64,000 nt of DNA from an uncultured Candidatus Peribacteria bacterium (GCA_964596675.1 CAZQUZ010000005.1:16875-80874), one strand, 5' to 3'; positions 3,698 to 59,865 are shown, numbered from the stretch's first letter. Translations and numbers: made by a program. Notes: generated by a model from the sequence alone, not told the origin.

Positions 3698-3753
3698 CAT
3701 TTTCTCCGAAAACATGCTACTATGAAAATACCTTTATCCTTATCTTTTTTTAT

Positions 3754-4485
3754 ATGGCAGATGTTCCACAGATTCCAGATAGCCTCGTACCACCTCCAGC
3801 ATCCATGCCTGCAGCATCCAATCCTGCAGGAGAGATGCAGCGATTTATGCAGCATGTATATGGCTGGATGGCATTCGCACTCGTCGTTTCAGGTGGCATA
3901 GCATACTATGTCGTCCATGACATCGTGCTTCTCACATGGATATTCGAAAAAGGACTTTTCATGCCACTTCTCCTCGTTGAGCTTGGTCTCGTATTTGGTC
4001 TGTCATGGTTCCTCCAGAAAATGAGTGCACTCACAGCCACGATTATGTTTATCCTCTATTCATTCGTCACAGGACTGACACTTTCTGTGATATTTCTCGT
4101 GTACCAACTTGGGTCTATCGTATCGATATTCGGCGTGACAGCAGTCATATTCACGGCTATGAGTGTCTATGGATATTATACGAAGCGTGATCTCACTGGC
4201 ATAGGTACGCTCGCATTTTTCGGGCTTATCGGTATCATCATCGCCGGTCTCGTGAATCTTTTCGTCCAAAATACGATGGCAGACTTTATCATCTCTGCAG
4301 TGGGTGTCATCGTATTTATTGCCCTCACAGCATACGATACTCAGAAGATAAAGGCACTCAATATCATCGGAAATGAGGGAACGGAAGAAGACAAAAAAGA
4401 GGTCATCATGGGTGCACTCACGCTCTACCTCGACTTTATCAACCTCTTCCTAAAGCTCCTACGCCTCTTCGGAAAAAGACGCTAA
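3754..4485 (+). CDS. Bax inhibitor-1/YccA family membrane protein
   Basis: Intact track ORF of 243 aa with multiple TM segments. Motifs YGYYTKRDLTGIG and TAYDTQKIK are typical of the BI-1/YccA family. Confidence 0.85.
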   Translation: MADVPQIPDSLVPPPASMPAASNPAGEMQRFMQHVYGWMAFALVVSGGIAYYVVHDIVLLTWIFEKGLFMPLLLVELGLVFGLSWFLQKMSALTATIMFILYSFVTGLTLSVIFLVYQLGSIVSIFGVTAVIFTAMSVYGYYTKRDLTGIGTLAFFGLIGIIIAGLVNLFVQNTMADFIISAVGVIVFIALTAYDTQKIKALNIIGNEGTEEDKKEVIMGALTLYLDFINLFLKLLRLFGKRR

Positions 4486-4616
4486 TATCTATCTTATATC
4501 AATCCCTCCGAAGTAGTGGGATTTTCTGTGAGTTTTTTATGAAAATCTCGTGAAGAAGCTTGTGATTTTGGCACTATGTGATAGACTAGTGCCACTTTAT
4601 TTCTTATCTTATCCCT

Positions 4617-5288
4617 ATGAAAGAACTCCGTATATTCCTCGCAGTGATATCACTCCTCCTCTTAGCTGGATTTGCTTCCTCAGCACTCGCTCGTGAGTCT
4701 GAGTCTGATGATGATCATAAATCTACTGGTACTTATGTGAGTCATGACGACGACGATAACGATGACGACGATGATCGCCGTGATAATCTGAAAGAACGAC
4801 TCAAAAAACTTCGCGAGATAAACGCTGAGCGTATAAAAAAACTTCGCGAAAAAAGAAAAAATCATCATACGACTCAGACGGGATCTACCCAAACAGGTGC
4901 TGTCATACATACTGGTGCTACCCAGACAGGATCTACGAAACCACTAGTAACGCCAGTAAAGCCACCAGTCACACCAGCACCTACTACTCCTACTCCGCCA
5001 GCAGCCCCAGTAGCAGTAACCCGATCTGCTACAGTGACATATCGTACTCCTGCGACCAGTGCGGATCCAGTATGATTCTCAGTTACAGTAAAATCCGGAC
5101 TCATCACGGCTGCGAGTGCGACCGTAAAATCCGGGAATAATACAAGCATCGGATATCAAAAAAGTTTTGCAAATAGCATTTCTGCACAAGCGGTAGGAAA
5201 AAAAGTAGCTGGACTCAATCTCTCAGCAGTCGGAGGTGCGAGTCTTACGACTACAGCCTTTGAGCAATTTGTATCAGTAAATTTCTAG
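4617..5288 (+). CDS. secreted low-complexity protein with FMN_bind-like C-terminus
   Basis: Track ORF 4617..5075 continues through TGA 5073 to TAG 5286-5288. It has a signal peptide, an Asp-rich run, TQTG repeats and a Pro/Thr linker. The C-terminus LSAVGGASLTTTAF resembles the FMN-binding domain signature. Confidence 0.55.
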
Positions 5289-5307
5289 TCTTCCCTCGAT
5301 AAGAAAT

Positions 5308-5335
5308 AATCCCTCCGAAATGGAGGGATTATTTC
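5308..5335 (+). terminator. hairpin terminator (reverse-complement copy of 3671-3693)
   Basis: aatccctcc-gaaat-ggagggatt hairpin. Confidence 0.6.
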
Positions 5336-5472
5336 TATCCCATAGAGCTTTCTAATTATATACACCTTTTTAGGTGGTAAGAATAATTGCTAGTTTCAGG
5401 CTCGATAGAATTTATTTTTGCAAATAGGATAATTATTCTTATAATTCTAATACTTAGAAAGTCAATATTTGT

Positions 5473-5922
5473 ATGATCGAATACATAGAACGTATACATC
5501 CCGTGAATGCAGAATACCTCATACATTCAGAATTATATCGCGTATATGCTGATCCATATGGGAATATGTATGAGCTCGCGATAGAAAAAATCACCGGACA
5601 AGTAAATGCACTCCTCGCATATTACTATCATGATGGAGCAAGTATGTGAGCTCATAATCAGGCGAATGTTGCCTTACTGAGTCCCGAAGGAGGCTTCTTT
5701 TGGGTAGATACTCCTCAGATACGAGCTGAGCTTGATATCAATATACTCTATATGTTCCTCAATCCACTTGCTCATATAAATGGTTGGCAGTATCAGAAAA
5801 AATTATCGCAAAATACAATACCAGAAGATGTACTCAGGAATACCTATCCGAAAGCTTCTGGACCAAGAGGTGTGTATAATCTCCTCTTCGAAATACGAAG
5901 CAAATATCTTCCCCATATTTAG
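5473..5922 (+). CDS. hypothetical protein (149 aa)
   Basis: ATG 5473 to TAG 5920-5922 with one in-frame TGA. Open for 149 codons in AT-rich DNA. Not in the track. Confidence 0.5.
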
Positions 5923-5982
5923 AATCTATAATTGCTTTTTCAGCTATATACCATAGTATAGTCCCATACTAAGCCATATATC

Positions 5983-6282
5983 ATGTCTCAAATGTCTCGT
6001 GCCGACTTTACTGATAAAGTCCAAGAATACATCAAACGTATCAATCAAATCGCAGAAGAGCAGGGCTACTCTGTGATGATGGCTTACTATATCGGCGGGT
6101 CCGATGAGGATGCATCAGATGATGACTTTATCATCGACTGGCGCAATATGAGTCTCAATGATAATCTCTATGCACTCAATCGCTGGAGTCAGGATATCAT
6201 GAATAACTTCGATGAAAATGCTGAGCAGGATGGAGAGGATATGTGGTGAAAGGGGATGCCAGACTTTGGTGCGAAGTTCTAG
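5983..6282 (+). CDS. acidic hypothetical protein (99 aa)
   Basis: Track ORF 5983..6249 reads through TGA 6247 to TAG 6280-6282. Confidence 0.55.
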
Positions 6283-6977
6283 AACTGCTCCCAGTGGATA
6301 TCGGATTTTGGTATGCCGAGGGACTCCAGGATCTCTCGAGAGCTCTTTACCATGGCGGGCGAGCCACAGATATAGTACTCTTCATAGGCCGAGATGAGCT
6401 CTGGAGTGAGTGCATCGGTGACGTAACCAGAGCACTGATGATGTGGTGCGTCGTCTCAGAAATCAGACTCGCGAGAGAAATACGCTCGATACTCGAAATC
6501 CTGAAACCGCGCTCCTATATCGAGGATCTCTGATGTATAAAAACTATCTATAAAATTTCTGACGCCGAAGATAAATGCGACTTTTGCTGGTTTTATAGGA
6601 TTCTCTGATGCCTGCCGCATCTGGCAGTATACTGGTGCGAATCCTGTCCCAGTACCGATAAAGCACTTACTCCTCGGGGTATCCATGAGTGTAAAGTGCC
6701 CGAGTGGTATCATGCCAGCTAGAGTCGTGCCGATATCTGCATCACAGATGAGTGGTGAACCACGACCATCGGGGATGCGTTTTATTATGAGGGTGAATGT
6801 CGTATCACTAAAACTCGCGAGTGAGTATGCACGATTGAGTCCTGGGGCAAGCTGGAACATAACGTACTGTCATGGTTTTGGGATTTCTTTCGATAATTCG
6901 TCGCAGGAGTATGTGAGCTCATAGACATCATGTGTGAGCTGTTTCTTTGTAGCGAGTATAAAAGAAGTTTTGAGCAT
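6279..6977 (-). CDS. ferredoxin-NADP reductase-like FAD/NAD(P)-binding oxidoreductase
   Basis: Track ORF 6456..6860 extends both ways through TGA. Motifs seen are PGQYV, RAYSLAS (RxYS FAD motif), GTGFAP (NAD motif) and a C-terminal EYYICGSPAMV...EQF. Confidence 0.85.
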
Positions 6978-7036
6978 AGAGATAATCAGAAAAAAGAATA
7001 TATTGCTTTTGCAAGCCTTTTAGTATAACAAGATGA

Positions 7037-7077
7037 CAAAAAATCTCTCCCGAGTATGGAGAGATTTAGGTTTTTTG
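7037..7077. terminator. bidirectional hairpin terminator
   Basis: aaatctctcc-cgagtat-ggagagattt hairpin with an A-run and a T-run. Confidence 0.6.
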
Positions 7078-7086
7078 CAAGAGGAG

Positions 7087-7332
7087 TTAGGCGACTTTTT
7101 TCTCTTCGATGATGGAGTCATTCGCAGCTTTAGGGAGAGGAGGTGTAGAGTCTAGGATACCTACAGTACCTGCTTTTGTATTTTGGAGGGCTTCTATGAG
7201 ATGCTTATCAGTGATATTCGTCCCGAGCCAAGAAGCGACTACCTCAGCAACTGCCCGAGCAATCGGTGTCTTATGGATACCAGCGTCTCTGAGTTTCTGT
7301 GCGAGAGATGAAAATTCGGTGTTTTCAGACAT
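7087..7332 (-). CDS. small hypothetical protein downstream of recA (81 aa)
   Basis: Track ORF 7087..7350. The second ATG (MSENTEF) is preferred because the first lies 2 nt after a TATAAT box. Confidence 0.5.
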   Translation of the reverse strand: MSENTEFSSLAQKLRDAGIHKTPIARAVAEVVASWLGTNITDKHLIEALQNTKAGTVGILDSTPPLPKAANDSIIEEKKVA

Positions 7333-7380
7333 AATGAAAATATATGTCATAATTATAGCACAGATTTCATTTCATGCAAA

Positions 7381-8424
7381 TTATTCATCGATTTCTTCTA
7401 CTATCTTTTCTTTTTTACTACCAGCAGTATCTCATTTTTTACTTTTACGTACCTCAGCTTCGATTTTTGCGAGGAGCTTCTTATCCTCTCTGAGGAATGT
7501 ACGGGCATTATCTCGTCATTGTCCGAGCTTTATATCACCATATGAGTAGAATGCTCATGCTTTTTTGATGATACCACGATCTGATCCGATATCGAGCACT
7601 TCACCCGCGCGAGAGATTCACTCATTAAATAGCACATCTATCTCCACTTCGCGGAATGGAGGAGCGACTTTATTCTTCACGATTTTTACTTTGACTTTAT
7701 TTCCGAATGCTTCTTTATCATCACCAGTACCTGATTCGAGCTTTTCTTTTTTACGGATTTCGAGACGCTGCGATGCATAGAACTTCAGAGCATTACCACC
7801 TGTAGTAGTCTCTGGATTACCGAACATGACACCTATCTTCATACGAATCTGATTAATAAAGATGACAGTCGTATTCGACTTACCGATGACACCAGTCACC
7901 TTACGAAGTGCCTGAGACATGAGGCGAGCCTGCAGTCCCATAAATGAGTCTCCCATGTTTCACTCGATCTCAGCCTTTGGTGTGAGGGCAGCGACCGAGT
8001 CTACGACTATGAGGTCGACTGCTCCAGAACGTACGAGCGCATCGACTATCTCGAGGGCTTGTTCACCATAGTCTGGCTGTGAGACGATAAGGTTATCGAT
8101 ATCGACACCGATATTACGAGCGTAGGCAGGGTCGAGTGCATGCTCTGCATCCACAAACGCTGCAGTACCACCAGCTTTTTGACACTCGGCGATAGCATGG
8201 AGTGTGAGTGTCGTCTTACCAGATGACTCTGGTCCATATATCTCGATGATGCGTCACTTTGCATATCCGCCGCCGAGTGCTTCATCGAGTGCGATAGAGC
8301 CAGAAGAGGTCATCTCGACATTCATATGTGTACGCTCTCCGAGTTTCATCACAGAGCCAGCGCCGAACTGTTTTTCTATCATGGCGAGAGCGGAAGCGAG
8401 TGCGTCTTTTTTATTATCAGTCAT
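7381..8424 (-). CDS. recA: recombinase RecA
   Basis: Track ORFs 7618..7956 and 7960..8154 join in one frame through TGA codons. The gene extends to ATG 8424 and TAA 7381-7383. Motifs: [17 protein letters not shown] (Walker A), [20 protein letters not shown]. Confidence 0.97.
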
Positions 8425-8663
8425 ATGAGAGTAAATGTAAGTGTGTAAAGTGTAAGTGTAGTGGTTTCAGAAATATGGGGTTTTTTTGAGAGATCTGGAG
8501 TATAGGATATTTATAGTCCGAAATACTGAGCCACCATCTGGAGTGGTGTTTTTCTGCGGTTCGTGCGGATACGCTCTTGTCCGATAAAGAGGAAGTGTGA
8601 ATTTTTCTGTCGAGAATGTCAGATAATGGAAATCATAGGGAAGAAAGAGTAAAAAAGTAAGAT

Positions 8664-9290
8664 TTATGTAAAGAGGTCTCCCGGAAATGCTCGGACGAAT
8701 GTACCTTGTATCATGATGTTACCATCGGATTCATCGAGGATTATAGGTTTATGTTTCGGGTTATCGGAGTGGGGAATGAGGTATACAGCACCATCACGTT
8801 CACGGTATTCTTTGAGTGTAGCTTCATCATTGATGAGTGCGACGACGATTTTGCCATTTTCTGGAAGATTGGACTTCTTGATGAGGACAAGGTCGCCACT
8901 TTCTATTCCTTTTTGGTTCATGGAGTCTCACTCTGCTCTGAGGAAGAAGTATTCATCACTTGATGAGAGGAGCTTCGTGGAGATGGGTATCTTGGTCTCG
9001 ATGTTCTCCTCGGCGAAGATAGGCATCCCGCAGGCGATAGCACCGATGAGAGGGATAGGTCGTACCTCGTAGCTGTCGGTCGTATACTGAGGAGATATAC
9101 GTATCTGGTCCTGACTATCTCGGTAAAGCCATCACTTCTCCATGATCTGATCCAGGAGGACAGATATCGAGCGAGGTGAGGCGTATCCGAGATCTGCCTG
9201 GAGGGCTCGTATCGTCATCTTCTGTCCAGTAGAGAGATACTCTTTTACTTTGAGAAAGACGGATTGTTCTTTGGTGGTGAGTTTTTCCAT
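8664..9290 (-). CDS. lexA: LexA repressor (S24 peptidase)
   Basis: Track ORF 8664..8921 extends 5' to ATG 9290. It has an N-terminal wHTH, a cleavage-site region GAIACG, and the catalytic motif G-D-S-M whose Gly is TGA (8928-8930). Confidence 0.92.
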
Positions 9291-9383
9291 AGTTCAAATG
9301 AAGTGAGAAAATAGAGTTTACTCGAATTTTCGAGCGGAATGCAGAACTAAGAGACGAAGTCTCATAAACGAGCAATTCCATAC

Positions 9384-9415
9384 AATGTATACAAATGAGT
9401 ATATATGTATACATT
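9384..9415. promoter_or_regulatory. candidate operator: AATGTATACA-N12-TGTATACATT
   Basis: Two copies of the palindrome TGTATACA bracket a TATACT -10-like hexamer, 95-125 nt upstream of lexA. Confidence 0.35.
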
Positions 9416-9434
9416 TTGAATGCAAATGTATTTT

Positions 9435-9464
9435 AAAAAATCCCATTGTATAAATGGGATTTTA
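9435..9464 (-). terminator. hairpin terminator
   Basis: aatcccatt-gtataa-atgggatt hairpin with a T-run on the minus strand, after the 9492..10061 gene. Confidence 0.6.
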
Positions 9465-9491
9465 TGTGGAAAATATTTCTTTATGTAGGAT

Positions 9492-10061
9492 TTAGAATCC
9501 AAATTTTTCCATACTAGTCTTGAGTTTACTTATTATTCATTGCACCTTATTCCCATGATTTAATGGTATGTTGTTTCGAATTCATTTCATGGGTATTTTA
9601 TTTCACATTACATCACTTGTATTCTGATAATTTCTGATTTTTTGCCCTACAAAATTATTTCTAAAAGTCTTTTTTAAAACCTCTTTTAACTCTATTCGCT
9701 CATGTCAATCTGAGAGTTGCTCTATTTCTGTTTGTATCTGAAATAAGCTATCAAAATTAAAACCACTTTCTGTATCATATTCTTTGTTGGGGAGTGCCTC
9801 AGATGGATTATGTAAAGGGAATTGTACTCACAAAAGCATATCGAGTCTTCCATACAGATAAGAAAGGCCATGTTCTTCTTCGCCTTGCACTTCATTTTGT
9901 AAAAAATTTTGGAATATCTTTCGAAACTGTTCAGCTCTCCAGTGATCTAGTTGCATGTGAAAAACACTATTACTAGAAAGTTGAATAATCAATTTCTGGA
10001 TATTCTTAGCTTCTTCTGAGGTCTCTTGTGCATGGGAGGGAAGTGATGATGAGTGTAACAT
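9492..10061 (-). CDS. hypothetical protein (189 aa)
   Basis: Track ORF 9828..10061 continues through about 6 TGA to TAA 9492-9494. Open for 189 codons in AT-rich DNA. Confidence 0.6.
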
Positions 10062-51431: not shown

Positions 51432-52547
51432 TTAGTCTACGTAGATATACCCATCGATGCTTGCATCATTTTTTGCTATTTTACGTATAGTCACTTCATT
51501 TATACGTCTATAGTTCATATCTTTCACGATAATGTGATCCTCTGTGACGTCAGCGACGATACCGACATGCCCGTAGTATCGATTATACCCTCGTCCTGTG
51601 AATTGTACGATAGCTCCTGGGATGGCTTTTTGTCCAGTCTTTGCACCTGCTGCTTTTGCATTTCGCATCCATGCATTTGCATTTCATCTCCATGTGACAG
51701 TCTTATTCTGGGCGACATACCAGGTACAGTTGCCCCATGCGAATCCGCGAGAAAGACCAGTATATTTTATTGTATAGCGAGATTTAAGCCCAGTAGTACT
51801 ATCTACGACTGTGGGTTTAGTGTTTGGCGTTGGGGTCGGTATAGGGGTGATTTTCGTAGCTGGTTTTTCTCCGGGTTTTGGTGTAGTGGTATTTTTTGCT
51901 ATTTTCGGAGCTGCTCATGGTATCATGAGTTCCATACCTTTTCGGATAGAGGCAGCATTTTTGAGTCCATTGACTCGTACGATATCATCAGCATCGACAG
52001 AGTAGAGTCGAGAGATCTCGGAAATCGTATCACCACTAGCGACTTTATGTACTACTCCAGATACTGGAGGTATGCGAAGAGTCGTACCGACACTGAGGGT
52101 ATCATCTGCTGATAAGTCATTGGCCCATAGTATCGTGTCTGTACTCACTCCATATTTTTTCGCGATACTACTGAGAGTATCACCAGCAGCGATCGTATAT
52201 GCCTTTGCTCGTTCACTCGAATTCTTCTCTTCGGATGGTGGGATTTTCTTCGTCACAGAAGATACCGTATCGAAGTCGGTACTGACGAGTCCAGATTTAT
52301 TGATATAGCTTCCTTCAGTTCCCCCATCTCACTCATACGCTGTGATGATCGTCGTCTCATCATAATCGCCAGCTCGAGCCTCATAGTCAGAGCCTATGAC
52401 AGAAAGAGATGGATATATCGGAAGTATGATGATTACTGCGAGAGTAAACCATCTAAAATTCCGAAACGATTCCCATGCAGAATATACCTTTTGGTTATTT
52501 CTGATAGCACGCTTTATACGCGCTTGGGTATTGAGGTTTGGAGTCAT
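51432..52547 (-). CDS. LysM x2 + CHAP-domain peptidoglycan hydrolase (371 aa)
   Basis: Track ORFs 52329..52547, 51915..52256 and 51432..51668 are in one frame. It has an N-terminal TM anchor, two LysM repeats (GDTLSSIAKKYGV, GDTISEISRLYSV), and a CHAP region with GNCTWYV ... YGHVGIV. Confidence 0.85.
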
Positions 52548-52604
52548 TCATTGGTTTTAGGAATAAACGTCGTATACCAATTCTCATAGAGAGAACATGA
52601 TATA

Positions 52605-52916
52605 CTATGCTATCGCCGATACCTGAAGAGTTGTGCGGTGTGCGCGGAAACCATATGTTCTCATATGACGTTTTTTCGCTATCATCTTAAATACACGGAT
52701 TTTATCAGCCTTGAACTGATCGACAACAGTGAGTGTAACTTTTGATCCCTCGACTGTAGGAGTACCGATCTTTACAGATTTTCCCTCTGCATCTGAGATG
52801 AGAAGTGCTGCGAGTTCGAGCTTTGCTCCGATTTCGAGATTCTGATGATCGACCTCGATAACTTGGTCTTTTTCTACTGTATACTGCTTGCCGCCGATTT
52901 CTATAACTGCTATCAT
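52605..52916 (-). CDS. rplU: 50S ribosomal protein L21
   Basis: Intact track ORF of 103 aa, starting MIAVIEIGGKQYTVEKDQ. Confidence 0.95.
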   Translation of the reverse strand: MIAVIEIGGKQYTVEKDQVIEVDHQNLEIGAKLELAALLISDAEGKSVKIGTPTVEGSKVTLTVVDQFKADKIRVFKMIAKKRHMRTYGFRAHRTTLQVSAIA

Positions 52917-53099
52917 ATGAAAAAAATGTTATGCTCATATGAGGGTCTACATGGGTAGAACTTAGTGGACCTCATAACGAAGCGAGATAAATATGGATTC
53001 GGATCCAAGAAGAAAAAACAATATATGTATTCTCTTCTCGAACACGAAATAGTATAATCAGGGAAGAAAAACTGTCGAGAAAAACAGCTTGACACTGCA

Positions 53100-53123
53100 T
53101 GGCTGGGGTACTAGGATTCGAAC
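53100..53123 (-). other. tRNA 3'-end-like fragment (T-loop, T-stem 3' strand, acceptor 3' strand, CCA)
   Basis: The minus strand reads GTTCGAATCCTAGTACCCCAGCCA. No complementary T-stem 5' strand or acceptor 5' strand lies upstream, so this is not an intact tRNA. Confidence 0.35.
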
Positions 53124-53408
53124 GCTCTCCGGCGCGTTCGCCTCTCCTCGCTTTCGAAATGCCTTTGAGCATTTCTCATGAATCGCTCGGATTCGAATCC
53201 TCGGAGTTTTATAAAAAACATTATGGCTGAACTACGGGGTCGGTGTTAGAACTTTTTGTGCGAGCACTAAAAACTGATACTGTGTCAGAACTCCGCAGAA
53301 TATATGAAAACTCTTAAAAAAGTCAAACTTAATTTTCGTCAAGGAGACACATTATCCCATATAAGAAACAGTATTCTTATATCATTAAGTTCCATTTTAG
53401 TGATGATG

Positions 53409-54380
53409 TTACATGACTTCATGTGCTATAAGATACGCGATATACGCCGTATAGCACAATACGAGTAATACTCCCTCTTTTCTTCAAATGGTATTTCTTG
53501 TCCAGATAAATGAGAGAAGGAGCAAAAGAATAGGTGCGAATATAGCAACCATTAGGTCAGTATATGAGGCATTCAAAAATGGTAGCGGGGCAATAATTGC
53601 GGAAGTCCCAAGAATTACTAAAATATTCATAATATTTGAACCAACTACATTTCAAATAGCAATATCTGGATTTCACCTTCTTGCCGCGATTATTGAGGTC
53701 GCAAGTTCTGGCATACTTGTTCCAATAGCAACAACAGTAAGTCCAATAATTGCCTGCGACAATCAGAAGAACTTTGCTATATTTACAGCACCATCTACGA
53801 GGATTTTTCATCCTATAAACAATACAAGTATTCCTCCAGCTATCCATAAAGTTGCTTTCCATGGTGATATGATCTTTTCAACCTTTTCGCTTTCATCAGG
53901 AATAAAGTTATTGTGTTTTACTGAATAGACTATATAAGCAATAGCGGCACTCAATAATATAATACCGTCTACTCGACCAATCGTATTATTCGAAGCACCG
54001 TCAAGAAATGTATCACTTACAAGAATAAGAAAGAGGAAACTGGTAAGTATGACTATGGGGAGGTCAAAAAATCTTGTCGTCCGCGATAGAATAATAGGCG
54101 ATATGCAGGCACTTACTCCAAGAATAAGGAGAACGTTAGCAATATTTGAGCCTAATACGTTTCAGATAGCAATTTCAGTATTTCAAGAAATACTTGCCAG
54201 TATGGATACAATCAATTCTGGCATACTTGTTCCAACTGCCACGATAGTGAGCCCAATAATTGCTTGTGATATTCAAAACTTCTTTGCAATGGATACAGAA
54301 CCATCTACGAGAACATTCCCTCAGAAAGTTAAAAGTATGAGACCAAAAATGACGGCGATACATGAGAGTAAGATTTCCAT
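53409..54380 (-). CDS. CaCA-family Na+/Ca2+ antiporter (YrbG-like), 323 aa
   Basis: About 9 in-frame TGA. Two alpha-repeats are present: GLTIVAVGTSMPEL...AIGNVLGSNIAN and GLTVVAIGTSMPEL...AIGNVVGSNIMN. Coordinates are anchored to out-of-frame track ORFs 54175..54363 and 53557..53862. Confidence 0.88.
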
Positions 54381-54395
54381 GATAGTAATCTGGAC

Positions 54396-55376
54396 TTAAA
54401 GTTTAAAAAGTTTTTTGAGGATTTCCCTTCCGCTATTTATAGAGGTAAGTTCCCTATCTCAACCAATTCAAGGAGTTCAATTTACTTCGAGAATAACTCC
54501 ACCGACTTCTTCGAGTGGTTTTGTGAAGTCAGTCGTGAGAATATCTACTCAACAAATAGAAAGGTTTAATTTATTCGCAACATCAATACAAAGCTTTTTG
54601 ATATCCTCATGAAGAATATGTGTCATATCTTTCGCTGTTCCTCACGTTCCCATATTAGAGTTTCAACGGAGCTGCAGTTCCATCCCAGCTGGAAGAATGC
54701 TATTTAGAGTGTATCATTTTTTCTGTATATAATCAACTAATTCATTATCTGAACGAATAAAAGAAAGCGGGGCATAATAATCCTCTTTTCTGAGGGGATT
54801 ATTGGCATTTTCATAATCTATAAGCTGTCCAATTGTCGAATATCCATTTCATATTACCGATGGAGGAACTCGATTATAGGCAACAATAACCTCTCCTAGT
54901 ACCACTAATACACGACATTCATCTCACGCAACTTGTTCTTGAATAATCATTTTCGGATATGTTGAAAATGAGGCATCAAGTTTTTTTTGAAGTTCTGGAA
55001 CGTTTATAATATTCATACATACTCCATTTCCATGAGCCTCATCAATTGGCTTAATGATAACAGGGAAATGAAAATCAGAAAGTTTTGACCAATCAAAGTT
55101 CGCAAACTCATGGTCATAGATATAGAGAGTTTTAGGAATAGGTATTCCATATTTATTTAAGAGCGAATACGTGAGCTCTTTATCATCCGATATTTTCTCA
55201 CCGAGAGAAGTATTTCCTCAAAAGTCAGTACTCTTAAAAAGTACTTCTTTGTTTTGAGATTTTACTAAAAACAAGTTCTTTTCTGGAATAAGGACATCAA
55301 CTTTTAGTCATAGTTTTTCTGCCTCTTCTTTGAGGACTTGTGATGATATAGACCAGTAGGTCATCGGTTTAGACAT
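54396..55376 (-). CDS. ATP-grasp ligase (cyanophycin-synthetase/RimK-like), 326 aa
   Basis: About 11 TGA. Motifs: FPVIIKPIDEAHGNGV, IIQEQVAGDECRVLVV, GNGYSTIGQLI, LRGNSNMGTGGTAKDMT, ICGVDI, ILEVNGTPGIGG. Confidence 0.8.
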
Positions 55377-55403
55377 AATTATAGCTTAGCAATTAAATAA
55401 CAT

Positions 55404-56915
55404 CTATTCTTCCTCTTCATTGAGTTTCCGAAGGAGTGGAGAAAATCGGAAATATTCAAAAAGCTGGAGTCACATATAACGACCTACAAGTATATTGAGA
55501 AATACAACAAGAATAATAATATCTGGATAAGAAATAAGAAAGTATTGAAGTGTTTTATACTCTACCATTTGATAAATAATAAATGTAATAATCGCATATT
55601 GAAAGACATCAAGCAATCCACTTGGTGAAAAAAGCTTTATATCTTCCTGAAAAATCTTATCTGCAAGAATAATGGTAATGAAGAGTGGAAATATAATGAG
55701 AACATTATCAAATATAGAGTACCGTATAATAGATAGTTCGAAAAAATTATCTACTCAAAGAATAAAAAGGAAGAGAGCGATATAGAGACTAATAAGAAGT
55801 GATCTTTTTGCGTGGAGTAAAAGATGAACTCTCTTACTGAAGATATTGACGAGAGTGATAGCAATAAATCCAATACCTATAAATAAAAGAGCAGATAATC
55901 AAAGTGATGAAATCGTTATTGCAAAAAGTATAGGATAATAGATGCCGAAAACATTAAATCATACTACTTGTTTCAGAAAGTTCAGAACAAGTACTACGAG
56001 AGTAAGTGAGAGCAGAAAGGCGATAAGTTGATATGAGAACCCTGAATATGCAAGAAACTCAAGAAAGCCACTTAAGCTATATATCTTCTTTGACTTCTCA
56101 TATGAGAGGACTTGTCAGATATCATATTCACTCTCTTTCGTTGTTGCAGCACGAGTGAGGAGTACATACAGTTGGTCTTCGGATATAAGAACCACTTTTT
56201 TCGCTCATAACTGGGAAAGAGGAAAAGCAATCACTTTTGAGAGAAATGAACGTGAATACTCTGAGATAATATATATTTGTTTCTTTGAGAAATTAAGTTC
56301 TTTGGTTTTTTGGAGCTTCACTATATCTGAGAAAAATCAGAGAACATCAGTACCTCAAACAACGAGGATATCACTTTGGTCAATATCGTTCCATATATCT
56401 ATGGCATTCTCAGCTTGAGATAAGCTGTTCTTTTGAGTGTAATTTTTATAAAGAATGTTATTCTTTTCAAAAATATCACGTATTCCAGTATCTACTCCTT
56501 TTCGTTCAGTTCAAATATAAGTAAATATTGAAGCATACACTCGTATTTCTTTTTCTATATTTCATTCACAACCCTGAAAACTTCATCAAATATTTGCCTC
56601 CAAACTTACTATTCAAGGAGTAGTAAAATATCGAAGATATTTTTCCCTATCCCGTATTGTTTCAACAACCTTTTTATCTCTTCGGAGAGTATAGACCACT
56701 CCTGAACTAAAATCCACATTCCCACTCCCCGTAGATACAATTTGGTACTCATGTGTTGAGTCAACCTTTACTTCACTTGGTCATTCAAGAAGAAAAATAG
56801 TGGAACACATCGTAGGTTCTCTTTGAATGATTTCACCACTTTCCGCATGCATTATCTCTATGGGAAGTAGGAGTGAAAGCAAGGAAATTGCAAGTTTTTC
56901 TATAATTTTTTTCAT
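55404..56915 (-). CDS. signal peptide + ~290-aa extracytoplasmic domain + 7 TM helices (503 aa); candidate 7TM/inactive-transglutaminase-type partner
   Basis: 504 codons with no TAA or TAG and about 13 TGA. The N-terminal signal is MKKIIEKLAISLLSLLLP. The last ~210 aa contain seven hydrophobic segments. Domain identity is inferred from context, not from recognised motifs. Confidence 0.6.
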
Positions 56916-56934
56916 AAGTGAAGGTTCTTAGGAA

Positions 56935-59259
56935 CTAAAGTATGTCGATTATTTTTAGATCATTAATTTTTATTTTTCCATAAAAAAGTTTTTCGTAGTC
57001 TCAGCCTTCGTCAATCCATTTCTTTACACGCATGTATCCATCGAGATATATTTTATCTTTTTGATATGTTGTTCCATGTACTCACTTTGTCTCGGAGTGA
57101 GATATTCCTCGCTTTAATCGCACAGCATCAGAAAAAATTGACTCATTTGATTTTTCTGGATACAGACTTCGGATAAGGTCTATCGTTTCAGAAAAAGAGA
57201 GCGTGTCAGCCACTGATAAGAGATAATATTTGAGATACATTGCATTTTTTTCATATCATTCAGGGAGGTGTTTAAATGAACGATAAATTGCAAACCCCTC
57301 TTCATCAGAAAGATAGTATCCAGTACCAAACTGGAATAGTTTTAATTCTGTTTCTTTTCCATTCAAATACCTACGAAAATGTGTTCCGATTTCATGCGAG
57401 AGTATTGCTCCAATTTCATTTTCCCGAATAATCGCATTTTTCGATATATGGATTTTTACTGTCTTACCATACGAGACTGACATTCTGGAGAGATTTCCAC
57501 TTTCTACAGTAATAGGTATTTTGGGAATATTATGATTTTCAAAATACCTATATATATAACTCATAACCTCATCGAGCGCTAACACTCGTCCAAGAGTAAA
57601 GGCATCAGTTTTTGGATTGTTTTGCACCTGCAATACTTTTTCCTTTGCTACAAGTGAGAGACTTGAGTTTGTTTTTCAAAACAAAAACTCATTATATCTG
57701 ACTATCTTTTCATGATTTTCATTTTTATAGGCTTCAACCAAAAATATCTTATTTTCTATTTCTGTAAGCTTTTCGATATAGAGTTCGGCAATTGGAGAAC
57801 CTTTTTGCTTGAGATTATACCCACGCTCAAAAAGATATTTTAGGTCTTCTTTGAAGGATAATACTTTCTCATTAGATGGAAAGTGATATTCAAATACAGG
57901 ATTATATCCTCATGGATTTTTGATAAACTCATCGAGTATGACGAAGTAATTGCTGGGCTTGAGGAGAGAAGAAAGATTAACTTTCTTTGAAGCCCTATAT
58001 ACAGCATCATCATAATCAAGGAGATCCTTCGTCCATTTTTCATTTGTCATGAGAGATTTCTGGGATATATGCGACATGGGACTAATCAGATACTCTTTCA
58101 GAATATCTTTTCACAAAATAATGCTGTTAGTTTGTGTATCTAACACGGTAAAGTTTTTTATATGAATTGATACTTGCGTATCAGTAATAAGGTGAATATC
58201 TGAATCAAAGGCTTGGGCGATATCTTTAGATATTGTGGTACTTTCTTTACTTATATCACAAATAATCTGGACTTCTCGGTCTCATTCGATATATGCCTTT
58301 TGCTCTAGATAAATAATCTTTTTTCCTGTATTTTCTGCAAGTATTTCTGTGTGAAAAAGTGTCTTCGCGATTTCAACTCCCTTTTCTGGGGATAATACTT
58401 TCAGATTTTCCACTTGTTTAAGTCTGGCTGCAAGTGGGACAAGATTGACGTTTTGGATTTCCAAGCCAGCGCGAGCATTGATTTCAAGAAGTTTTGGTCA
58501 ATTTTTCGTAATCACCCAATCAAGTGCGAGATATCCAAGTTTGGTATACATTTGAACCTGTGAAGAGTAGAGCAAGATATCTTCCCAGAATGGGATATGC
58601 TGATTATGCAATTCACTATACTCAGCAGGAAATGAAGTGGTAAAAATCTTTTTTGACTGAAAGAGACTTATTACTTCTCCATTAGCAATATTGAGCCCTA
58701 TTCCAATTCATCACTGTGCCAGATTTGCTTTCCCACCTGAATGGAGTGTAGGCATGCGCACCATAGCAGTAATTGGGACAAGGTTATAGACAATGACACG
58801 AATATCCGCAAGCCCATGTTTAGAGTAGAGAGAGAAGTCTTTTCATGGAGAGAGCATTTCTTCTATGACAACTGTATCTGTTGAGCCATGAAGAGAAAAA
58901 GATCCATGAAGTATATCTATCATATGGAGCTTAATTTCTTCTTCCGACCATATTTCAGAGTCAATGATATACATCTCATCTTCACGTCTTACGATAAGGA
59001 TACCACGTCATCAGCTTCATTTATTTGGTTTGATAACAAATGTATTTGATTTTATATTCTTGAGGGAGAACTTATGGAGCTCTTGCTGGTTGTTTATGGT
59101 ACAATATGTTTCTGCAAAAGGAATACCCCGACTAGAGAGGAAGTGTTTTGTTTTGAGTTTGCTATCTGCAAGAGAAATTGACTCATCCGAGTTTTTTGTT
59201 CGGATATATCGTAGATTTCTTGCATTCATTCAGAGGATGCCATGTGAAAAGAACTTCAT
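56935..59259 (-). CDS. fusion protein: alpha-L-glutamate-ligase-like ATP-grasp (N) + DUF1704/QEGLA-like putative metallopeptidase (C), 774 aa
   Basis: Track ORFs 59017..59229, 58282..58464 and 57256..57633 share one frame. Joined through about 14 TGA, the gene runs from ATG 59259 (MKFFSHGILGMNARNLRYI) to TAG 56935-56937. N-terminal motifs: VIKPNKGSGGRGI, GKANLAQGGIG, LEINARAGLEIQ. C-terminal motifs: SHEIGTH and SDEEGFAIY. Confidence 0.75.
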
Positions 59260-59440
59260 ACTTCCAATCTATAAAATAAGGAGGGTTTGTCAATGTTTAT
59301 TCAGCATCATGTAATCTAGATTTCATATATAGCAAGCCATCTCCCGACTTTTTTCAAAAAAGATTTGAGAAAAAGTGAAAAATAATTTATCGGTAATTGT
59401 GAGATATCACACCCTATAACTTTTTAACCACTTTTTCCCT

Positions 59441-59836: not shown

Positions 59837-59842
59837 AATAAA

Positions 59843-59865
59843 ACAGGTCATTTGACCTGTTTTTC
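59843..59865. terminator. bidirectional hairpin terminator
   Basis: acaggtc-attt-gacctgt hairpin plus a T-run, between convergent genes. Confidence 0.65.

Follow-up and report, generated by a model that had tools for sequence, protein, structure and literature searches.

A Rim/Rlo-type locus of Gracilibacteria that pairs a fused ATP-grasp ligase and MATCAP-like carboxypeptidase with a membrane protein ending in oligo-glutamate: a candidate for reversible tail modification

A stretch of 64,000 nucleotides (nt) deposited under an uncultured Candidatus Peribacteria bacterium (GCA_964596675.1, CAZQUZ010000005.1:16875-80874; the whole stretch is called the window here, and positions are counted from its first letter) carries four minus-strand genes at 53409-59259, which constitute a Rim/Rlo-type system in a Gracilibacteria-class variant, combining an alpha-L-glutamate-ligase-like ATP-grasp enzyme, a peptidase and a partner with a seven-transmembrane 7TM_transglut module (7TM). 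It is set apart from Rim and Rlo by a three-domain bifunctional enzyme (gene 1), by a different ectodomain in the membrane partner (gene 2) and by an oligo-glutamate tail that this partner itself encodes. Our favoured reading, held tentatively and at a little under even chances, is that the fusion protein would extend and trim the tail of its partner, which would amount to a reversible modification of a membrane protein.

The fused enzyme and its oligo-glutamate-tailed membrane partner

Gene 1 encodes a protein of three domains, an ATP-grasp ligase, a probable retropepsin remnant and a MATCAP-like carboxypeptidase, has no signal peptide, and its predicted product is a cytoplasmic, bifunctional enzyme. 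The ligase domain matches ATPgrasp_ST (PF14397) with 184.6 bits against a cutoff of 31.4 (E=2.8e-54). Its best NCBIfam match is TIGR02291 (214 bits, E=2e-63), which falls under the equivalog cutoff of 314 and therefore marks the domain as a relative rather than an equivalog, and the RimK family TIGR00768 scores 41.8 bits, short of its cutoff of 143.4. The C-terminal domain matches MATCAP (PF08014, formerly DUF1704) over residues 444-772 with 74.8 bits against 27 (E=8e-21) and the QEGLA family TIGR02421 with 87.7 bits (E=9e-25), where the curated cutoff of 338.65 is not reached; it reads EEGFA where the family name has QEGLA. The first-pass annotation, generated by a model from the sequence alone, had described gene 1 as a fusion of an ATP-grasp and a DUF1704/QEGLA-like HExxxH domain, and this is borne out by PF14397 and PF08014, the latter being the family expected for the C-terminal domain, both above their cutoffs, and by HEIGTH at residues 622-627, although the annotation counted two domains and missed the degenerate one between them. 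Both catalytic sets are invariant (21 and 36 homologues, down to 40% identity), namely K77, E133/E134, D247, E259, N261 and R263 of the ATP-grasp and H622, E623, H627, E653 and E654 of the peptidase.

Compared with human MATCAP (7z6s), the C-terminal domain gives E=1.8e-6 in phmmer with HExxxH, EEG-A and KD-YLDG in register; a KDKIYLDGY motif stands at residue 734. The AlphaFold2 model of a 79%-identical homologue (P0003; mean predicted local distance difference test score, pLDDT, 82.6), taken as the structure of gene 1, matches MATCAP 7z5g/7z6s in Foldseek at E=1e-11 with a TM-score of 0.66-0.68 on the target, while sequence identity is only about 18-19%. For the ligase domain of the same model, the top ATP-grasp neighbours are RimK (including the RimK-RpsF complex), ArgX and LysX. 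MATCAP/TMCP enzymes (human TMCP1/2) cleave Tyr and Glu off the C-terminal end of acidic tails and trim polyglutamate (PMC10499314), and carboxypeptidase activity on acidic C-terminal tails is predicted for gene 1 by analogy. At NCBI the fusion protein is labelled only as a [quoted passage not shown], and in the searchable literature there was no description of this system, no mention of these Pfam families and none of bacterial MATCAP homologues with ATP-grasp ligases. An archaeal relative of the ligase domain occurs on the Halobacterium sp. DL1 plasmid CP007061 (locus L090, 4164-5918), in an unannotated open reading frame (ORF) of 584 amino acids (aa) whose ATPgrasp_ST domain is 37% identical to the bacterial ligases and is preceded by an N-terminal extension of ~280 aa.

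Gene 2 matches 7TM_transglut (PF14402) with 43.5 bits against a cutoff of 25 (E=3.5e-11). A signal peptide, an N-out ectodomain, seven transmembrane segments and K/R-rich even loops place its C-terminal tail in the cytoplasm. The 503-aa protein with signal peptide, outside domain and seven helices had been recognised in the first reading, whose topology holds and in which the invariant oligo-glutamate tail was overlooked. The inactive transglutaminase-like domain that had been named for such partners was rejected for gene 2, since residues 1-293 have no Pfam match at E<=10 and since Foldseek finds no transglutaminase or papain-like match in the PDB for the AlphaFold2 model used here, that of a 97%-identical homologue (P0121, pLDDT 75.6). 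In this model the ectodomain consists of an Ig-like beta-sandwich and an alpha/beta domain, with weak and generic PDB matches.

The protein ends in ...FRFSPLLRKLNEEEE directly before the stop codon, the encoded end being ...RKLNEEEE. Two to six terminal Glu residues are found in 49/49 clustered 7TM partners of the fusion and two split copies, and also in 42/42 database homologues of gene 2, spanning Gracilibacteria, Absconditabacteria and standard-code Peregrinibacteria and both genetic codes. The residue preceding the run is variable, and the run flips between three and four residues even at >80% protein identity. A terminal run of at least two Glu is present in just 2.2% of the 1026 other complete proteins encoded in these loci; a run of three or more occurs in two of them only, both 7TM fragments. 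The AI-2E transporter of family f5 (L027, L028, L045, L046, L049, L054, L066) also ends in ...FEE; it lies two genes from the 7TM gene in Absconditabacteria, where the synteny is probably coincidental.

An exhaustive profile search returned 1215 relatives in the wider 7TM_transglut-related family. Its 150 best representatives at 50% clustering divide into 93 that end in EE or longer, 28 with Lys/Arg-rich ends, 10 with other ends and 19 truncated sequences. Among proteins with retrievable gene context, the basic tails fall into two groups, the partners of two-domain ligases with an intact retropepsin DTG motif (L087, L091-L093; n=4) and a set of paralogues with no ligase nearby (L084-L086; n=3); the RloB proteins of Legionella and Aeromonas, two proteobacterial proteins, differ from gene 2 in having no oligo-glutamate tail. 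This pattern suggests that the tail tracks the three-domain fusion. A rule by which the EE tail goes with the presence of MATCAP was rejected because L091 combines a separate MATCAP gene with a basic-tailed 7TM protein, which argues that the tail follows the fusion and not the mere presence of MATCAP. A link to the loss of DTG is likewise not exact, as L079 keeps DTG and yet its partner ends in EE. Within the flanks examined, no basic-tailed 7TM paralogue was found co-resident on fusion-bearing contigs. The L084-L086 paralogues belong to code-25 bacteria, and the gene for their Lys/Arg-tailed protein is always flanked on one side by a divergent tRNA-guanine transglycosylase gene and on the other by a gene for a conserved protein of ~145 aa that is weakly similar to AMMECR1.

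A word-indexed search returned 1021 relatives of the fusion; the best 120 of them are nearly all near full length with both domains, and the named sources among these 120 are all Gracilibacteria, Absconditabacteria/SR1 or Vampirococcus. In contigs representing one genome per species the fusion is encoded by 387 stretches, the top 80 of which include standard-code Peregrinibacteria at 33-34% identity. For 84 loci, genes were called with a per-locus code test, all proteins were clustered and hidden Markov models were built for the partner families; the 43 loci in which the fusion is flanked by 6 kb or more on each side are termed informative. A 7TM gene lies near the fusion in 34 of these 43, always on the same strand (58/58 matches), and in Peregrinibacteria it precedes the fusion gene with an overlap of 1-4 nt. 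The gene 3 family is present in 19/43 informative loci, in one to three tandem copies, and the CaCA antiporter encoded by gene 4 is beside the cluster in 4/43 (7/84 of all loci). Only the closest relatives (L001, L007, L010; 62-79% identity) have all four genes in this order, and the initial expectation of four genes conserved together applies to these alone; the conserved core is genes 1 and 2, and the antiporter is a rare neighbour. The housekeeping genes LysM-CHAP, UppS and polyprenyl synthase flank the four-gene block both in the window (51432-59259) and in the 79%-identical relative (L001 6124-13709), but the block has opposite orientations to them in the two, which argues that it moves as a unit.

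In Absconditabacteria a variable cassette lies between fusion and 7TM gene, comprising extra ATP-grasp ligases, GNAT acetyltransferases, a HExxH protein, once a Mur-type ligase, and a stand-alone distant MATCAP-like peptidase (family f4, hhalign 98%). None of these items occurs anywhere in the 64-kb window. Four flanking families of Absconditabacteria (f3, f5, f6, f9: cysteinyl-tRNA synthetase, the AI-2E transporter, DUF192, and a MurF-like ligase on the opposite strand) were rejected as system members and regarded as housekeeping neighbours.

Relation to known ligase-peptidase systems and origin of the fusion

In the rloABC operon of Pseudomonas aeruginosa, the polyglutamate-cleaving RloA is a secreted retropepsin resembling RimB, RloB is an inactive-transglutaminase 7TM protein and RloC an ATP-grasp enzyme (Lormand et al., mBio 2025, PMC12239564). 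In this species, the only one for which phenotypes are known, the operon affects hypo-osmotic tolerance, cell shape, biofilm and beta-lactam phenotypes, and the loss of the three RloA paralogues is lethal in low-osmolarity medium unless rloB or rloC is deleted (PMC12239564). The earlier statement that such neighbourhoods have no experimentally defined function is outdated in view of these genetic phenotypes and of the cleavage of polyglutamate by RloA, and the co-occurring QEGLA proteins that it also mentioned are absent from beside the two proteobacterial rloABC loci examined. Gene 1 shares with this system an RloC-type ATP-grasp (34% identity over 312 aa, full length, with RloC of a Legionella plasmid rloABC, E=1.4e-48), gene 2 shares the RloB-type 7TM_transglut module (20% identity with Legionella RloB, 7TM region only, E=6e-7), and a peptidase arm of RimB/RloA ancestry would survive as the remnant in gene 1. 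In contrast to RloABC, the gene 1 peptidase is cytoplasmic, ligase-fused and of the MATCAP-type Zn carboxypeptidase kind, with the retropepsin DTG lost; the gene 2 ectodomain is a beta-sandwich plus alpha/beta domain and not an inactive transglutaminase; a CphA-G-like ligase and a CaCA antiporter are added in the window; and the host uses code 25. A separate secreted RloA retropepsin with DTG is encoded neither in the operon nor in the 64-kb window.

Other systems share parts of this design. RimK adds Glu to the ...EE end of ribosomal protein S6, LysX and ArgX ligate onto the C-terminal Glu of LysW, and TTL/TTLL enzymes add amino acids to tubulin tails. The likeness to RimK-RimB-RpsF lies in the pairing of an ATP-grasp enzyme, which glutamylates a protein whose last residues are EE, with a peptidase that reverses the addition, and in the rank of RimK as top structural match of the ligase domain, whereas the candidate substrate here is a membrane protein encoded next door rather than S6, ligase and peptidase form one polypeptide and the active peptidase is predicted to be a metallocarboxypeptidase. 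In the tubulin tail cycle (TTL/TTLL with MATCAP/TMCP, KIAA0895L) an ATP-grasp ligase is likewise paired with a carboxypeptidase of the MATCAP fold with HExxxH and EEG, and the candidate substrate here is also an acidic, Glu-rich C-terminal tail; unlike that cycle, the present enzymes are bacterial and fused, the ligase is RimK/RloC-like and not of the TTL family, and the target is not tubulin. In the LysW system (LysX/ArgX, LysK), an ATP-grasp ligase acts on the C-terminal Glu of a dedicated partner from which a metallohydrolase releases the product, and ArgX and LysX are among the top structural matches of the gene 1 ligase, but the window operon contains no biosynthetic modifying enzymes, its peptidase is of another family, and its partner is a 7TM membrane protein where LysW is a small soluble carrier.

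The middle domain of gene 1 is probably a degenerate retropepsin of the RimB/RloA type, an assignment that draws on alignment continuity, retained motifs and intermediate architectures. Residues 1-389 of gene 1 align with a two-domain protein of locus L087 composed of ATPgrasp_ST and Zn_protease (PF05618, the RimB/RloA family), so that the alignment reaches into the middle domain. In the column of the catalytic DTG, gene 1 has D335-I-S and most Absconditabacteria have D-L-N/D, and the retropepsin C-terminal motif psi-I-I-G-R/K-x-D-L..F-L-I/V-x-P is kept ("IILGKDxL..YLIxP" in gene 1). DTG is intact in 4/4 two-domain proteins, against 1 of ~79 three-domain fusions. Direct profile support is weak: aspartyl-protease Pfam families match only 2/25 middle domains, L087 itself being one of the two, and a PDB profile search with the middle domain yields only marginal matches to DDI1 (E~1).

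The intermediate architectures came from the 7TM family search and context look-ups. In L087, L092 and L093 the 7TM gene is followed by a gene for the two-domain ligase-retropepsin with intact DTG, and downstream of it by extra ATP-grasp ligases, Mur-type ligases or a pyroglutamyl peptidase. L091 has the 7TM gene, the two-domain ligase-retropepsin and then a separate MATCAP gene that overlaps by 8 nt. These four loci use the standard code and encode 7TM proteins with PKD ectodomains. The loci trace a path, and imply a history, in which a ligase and a separate retropepsin, as in Rim and Rlo, would have given rise to a ligase-retropepsin fusion, a MATCAP gene would have been added, and the three-domain fusion would then have formed as its retropepsin decayed. 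The L092 operon (3744-9715), with four further ATP-grasp ligases and a pyroglutamyl peptidase (C15) behind its ligase-retropepsin fusion, has the look of an assembly line in which ligases alone build a short peptide that begins with Glu or Gln.

Tail modification and the alternatives

A membrane-coupled system of amino-acid ligation and trimming, as proposed in the first-pass annotation, remains the best general reading of the locus. In the form that we favour, genes 1 and 2 would be the working unit: the RimK/RloC-like ATP-grasp would activate the terminal carboxylate of the gene 2 tail and add amino acids, most likely Glu, and the fused MATCAP-like Zn carboxypeptidase would take the added residues off again, so that tail length or identity, and hence the state of the membrane protein, would depend on the two activities jointly. 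The middle domain would be a dead retropepsin left from the ancestral ligase-retropepsin protein, gene 3 might add a further or different residue to the tail, and the CaCA antiporter would be at most a loosely coupled partner in ion homeostasis. Speculatively, the balance between the two activities could respond to an external cue relayed by the ectodomain and the 7TM bundle. This model draws on the conservation of the tail, its rarity in the chance control, its cytoplasmic location, the linkage of fusion and 7TM gene and the restriction of the tail to fusion partners; on the structural kinship of the ligase with RimK and LysX/ArgX, all of which ligate onto a C-terminal Glu of a protein; on the sequence and fold match of the peptidase domain to MATCAP with invariant HExxxH and EEG; and on the invariance of both catalytic sets in one cytoplasmic polypeptide. 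The union of ligase and peptidase in a single chain would be typical of enzymes of reversible modification and wasteful for the synthesis of a free polymer. That the tail is the substrate, which residue is added and what the modification controls are points that we infer from the sequences.

Several observations weigh against this model. The substrate role of the tail is read from sequence patterns only, its covariation with the fusion rests on few independent non-fusion loci (4 + 3 + 2), and L091 has a separate MATCAP gene beside a basic-tailed 7TM partner. In 9/43 informative loci no 7TM gene lies within 10 kb of the fusion. With as many as five ATP-grasp ligases, together with Mur-type ligases, GNATs and a pyroglutamyl peptidase, related loci look more like sites of free-peptide assembly, and the periplasmic location of RloA in Pseudomonas implies an exported product there. 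The oligo-glutamate tail could also be a docking or pseudo-substrate element.

The strongest competitor, which we consider a real though doubtful possibility and which follows the customary view of RloABC by analogy, is that genes 1 and 3 make, in the cytoplasm, an unattached acidic oligo- or polypeptide whose core is poly-alpha-Glu and which may be extended or capped, with the MATCAP-like domain trimming it or making primers, the 7TM protein exporting or sensing it, perhaps for osmotic or envelope homeostasis, and the tail serving only for docking, as a primer mimic or as an autoinhibitory element. RimK itself also makes free polyglutamate, gene 3 resembles the polymer and dipeptide synthetases CphA1, Ngg and GshAB, and the suppression of RloA-loss lethality by loss of RloB or RloC in Pseudomonas is consistent with a toxic RloB/RloC product; the pyroglutamyl peptidase among the extra ligases, GNATs and Mur-type ligases of related loci would need a free peptide N-terminus. 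However, with ligase and exopeptidase joined in one cytoplasmic protein, a free product would be made and degraded in a futile cycle, transport by 7TM_transglut modules has no support, and a free peptide by itself leaves unexplained why oligo-glutamate is invariant in fusion partners and absent elsewhere.

Improbable, in our estimate, is a role in the envelope, in which the ligases would build or remodel a peptide on an envelope precursor (peptidoglycan-stem-like or glycan-linked) that the 7TM protein handles at the membrane. The cell-shape and beta-lactam phenotypes of RloABC mutants would fit, as would the Mur-type ligases and glycosyltransferases in or beside related operons and the LysM-CHAP hydrolase, UppS and polyprenyl synthase genes downstream in the window, but in L001 the block is turned round with respect to these flanking genes, whose synteny with the operon is not kept there, the Mur ligase of RAAC1 is a singleton family, and the 64 kb of the window contain no Mur ligase, glycosyltransferase or GNAT. 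Still less probable is an action of the fusion on another protein such as ribosomal protein S6, after the manner of RimK and RimB, with the 7TM protein merely as anchor or regulator: RimK proteins are the nearest structural relatives of the ATP-grasp and the ancestral partner domain is RimB-like, but RloC/TIGR02291 is a closer match for the ligase (214 bits) than the RimK family is (42 bits), its linkage and translational overlap with the 7TM gene are tight and ancient, and the matching oligo-glutamate terminus sits on the 7TM partner itself. Mere chance adjacency of the four genes, for which the weak promoter evidence and the rarity of the CaCA neighbour might speak, is effectively refuted for genes 1-3 and very improbable overall, given gaps of 15-27 nt with no strong internal terminator, a block that moved as a unit relative to its flanks between window and L001, and a fusion-7TM linkage that persists across lineages down to 33% identity and two genetic codes.

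To return to the modification of the gene 2 tail, a bolder version of it, to which we give slightly less credence again, is a "tail code", in which the reversibly extended and trimmed oligo-glutamate end of the 7TM protein would be a prokaryotic counterpart, and possibly an antecedent, of the TTL/TTLL-MATCAP cycle and would identify the kind of substrate on which RloB/RloC systems act. RloABC-type systems affect osmotic tolerance, antibiotic susceptibility, biofilm formation and cell shape in pathogens. The present variant unites ligase and peptidase in one cytoplasmic protein and presents a substrate motif of the RimK/MATCAP type on the next-door partner, which turns the question of what the ligase makes into a concrete assay on a 12-residue peptide. 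If true, the model would add a second or third case of bacterial protein polyglutamylation, the first on a membrane protein, and would provide the first functional context for bacterial MATCAP/DUF1704 homologues. The lineage has reduced genomes and is often predatory or epibiotic, and since 387 or more of its species-level genomes encode the fusion, the system is probably important to the physiology of these bacteria.

Operon layout, genetic code and accessory genes

Read with translation table 11, the region yields ORFs of at most 146 aa, whereas reading TGA as sense gives the four intact minus-strand ORFs of Table 1 (774, 503, 326 and 323 aa), whose spacings of 19, 27 and 15 nt match those first annotated exactly. 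Of the 15 TGA positions of gene 1, 10 correspond to Gly in no fewer than 10 of 11 standard-code Peregrinibacteria homologues, and the 165 aligned cells of all 15 sites contain 118 Gly and 0 Trp. TGA is therefore Gly and not Trp (code 25), as had been proposed. The lineage is Gracilibacteria, and a complete relative genome measures 1.18 Mb. Code 4 (TGA = Trp, "gcode 4") underlies the database translations of many homologues, which consequently carry wrong Trp residues at conserved Gly positions; some public versions are broken up by code 11, as in the JGI calls in L001.

Table 1. Coordinates of the genes, domains and motifs of the locus in the window
Feature	Position	Strand	Remark or basis
Gene 1	56935-59259	-	774 aa, 15 in-frame TGA
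RloC/RimK-like ATP-grasp (ATPgrasp_ST / TIGR02291-like), gene 1 residues 14-290	58390..59220	-	Profiles, Foldseek
Beta-rich middle domain, gene 1 residues 315-397	58069..58317	-	Alignment continuity, motifs, intermediates
D335-I-S in place of DTG	58249-58257	-	Alignment to two-domain proteins
MATCAP-like (ex-DUF1704/QEGLA) Zn carboxypeptidase (predicted), gene 1 residues 417-774	56938..58011	-	Pfam, phmmer, Foldseek
HEIGTH, gene 1 residues 622-627	57379-57396	-	HExxxH of MATCAP-like domain
EEG, gene 1 residues 653-655	57295-57303	-	MATCAP-like domain
Gene 2	55404-56915	-	503 aa, 14 in-frame TGA
Gene 2 signal peptide	56844-56915	-	Topology analysis
Gene 2 ectodomain, beta-sandwich + alpha/beta domain, ~270 aa	56046-56843	-	AlphaFold2 model
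Gene 2 7TM_transglut module	55473-56033	-	Pfam
Gene 2 cytoplasmic tail	55407-55472	-	Topology
Terminal EEEE codons GAA GAG GAA GAA of gene 2	55407..55418	-	TAG directly after
Gene 3	54396-55376	-	326 aa, 11 in-frame TGA
Gene 4	53409-54380	-	323 aa, 9 in-frame TGA
Promoter-like element TTGACA-16 nt-TAGATT	59266..59293	-	10/12 matches, best minus-strand match of the region

Co-transcription of genes 1-4 is suggested by the spacing of 15-27 nt only. The promoter-like element upstream ends 6 nt before the ATG of gene 1, for which a leaderless start is possible, and it is a weak candidate for the gene 1 promoter, as the region contains 29 promoter-like matches against 29.8 in shuffled sequence, that is, no enrichment, and several weaker matches lie inside the operon. 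The single upstream promoter of the earlier description thus exists as the best match, but its singleness is not demonstrated. No terminator was found after gene 4 and no strong one within the four-gene block.

Gene 3 had been described as a cyanophycin-synthetase/RimK-like ATP-grasp, in agreement with its match to the G domain of cyanophycin synthetase (NCBIfam TIGR02068, E=2e-66), which covers region 160-448 only and reaches 224.5 bits against a cutoff of 850. It also matches CphA1 in the PDB (7lgn, G domain, E=7e-41) and the ATP-grasp regions of Ngg (N-acetylglutaminylglutamine synthetase) and GshAB. In CphA1 the G domain extends the peptide at its C-terminus, and the alignment of gene 3 with it includes the substrate-loop motif "N(I/M)(S/G)TGGTA", but gene 3 differs from the full N-G-M architecture of cyanophycin synthetase in being a stand-alone, G-domain-like ATP-grasp of 326 aa that has neither the N domain nor the Mur-ligase-like M domain; a Mur-type ligase lies beside its equivalent only in a few relatives (RAAC1 SR1, L093). 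A split cyanophycin synthetase in the window was rejected, as the window contains no Mur ligase and the Mur ligase adjoining the ATP-grasp in RAAC1 SR1 is a singleton family. By analogy, gene 3 would be a frequent accessory ligase that extends C-termini. Directly downstream of the fusion in L003 (10343-10597) and L053 (12340-12594), only the first ~85 residues of a gene-3-type ligase are present, and these apparently decaying remnants are consistent with a dispensable gene 3.

Gene 4 was correctly placed in the Na+/Ca2+ exchanger family, as it scores 246.7 bits against TIGR00367 (YrbG-type CaCA Ca2+/Na+ antiporter; curated cutoff 179.65) and has two alpha-repeats, with GTSMPE at residues 50 and 220. 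Its two Na_Ca_ex repeats and GTSMPE signatures liken it to YrbG and NCX_Mj-type CaCA proteins; the protein is ordinary, and only its position beside the operon in a subset of Gracilibacteria is unusual. The CaCA gene is downstream on the same strand in the window, L001, L007 and L010, convergent in L017 and divergent upstream in L060 and L063, and its recurrence in three arrangements hints at a link to the system, but it is not counted as a core part because it is found in <10% of loci. Acidic tails or polymers bind Ca2+, and the Rlo phenotypes are osmotic.

Between gene 4 and the LysM-CHAP gene, ~860 nt (52548-53408) with a GC content of 0.43 against 0.35 contain no convincing gene; the longest ORF there (52702-53172, minus strand) would encode an implausible Arg/Ser-rich product. 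Rfam gives no match to this interval even at relaxed thresholds, and at gathering thresholds the whole 64 kb contain no tRNA, tmRNA or Rfam family match. On the other side of the operon, at the end of a divergent 131-aa ORF upstream of it, a strong, bidirectional, terminator-like hairpin, AAAACAGGTC-AAAT-GACCTGTTTT, lies at 59840-59863.

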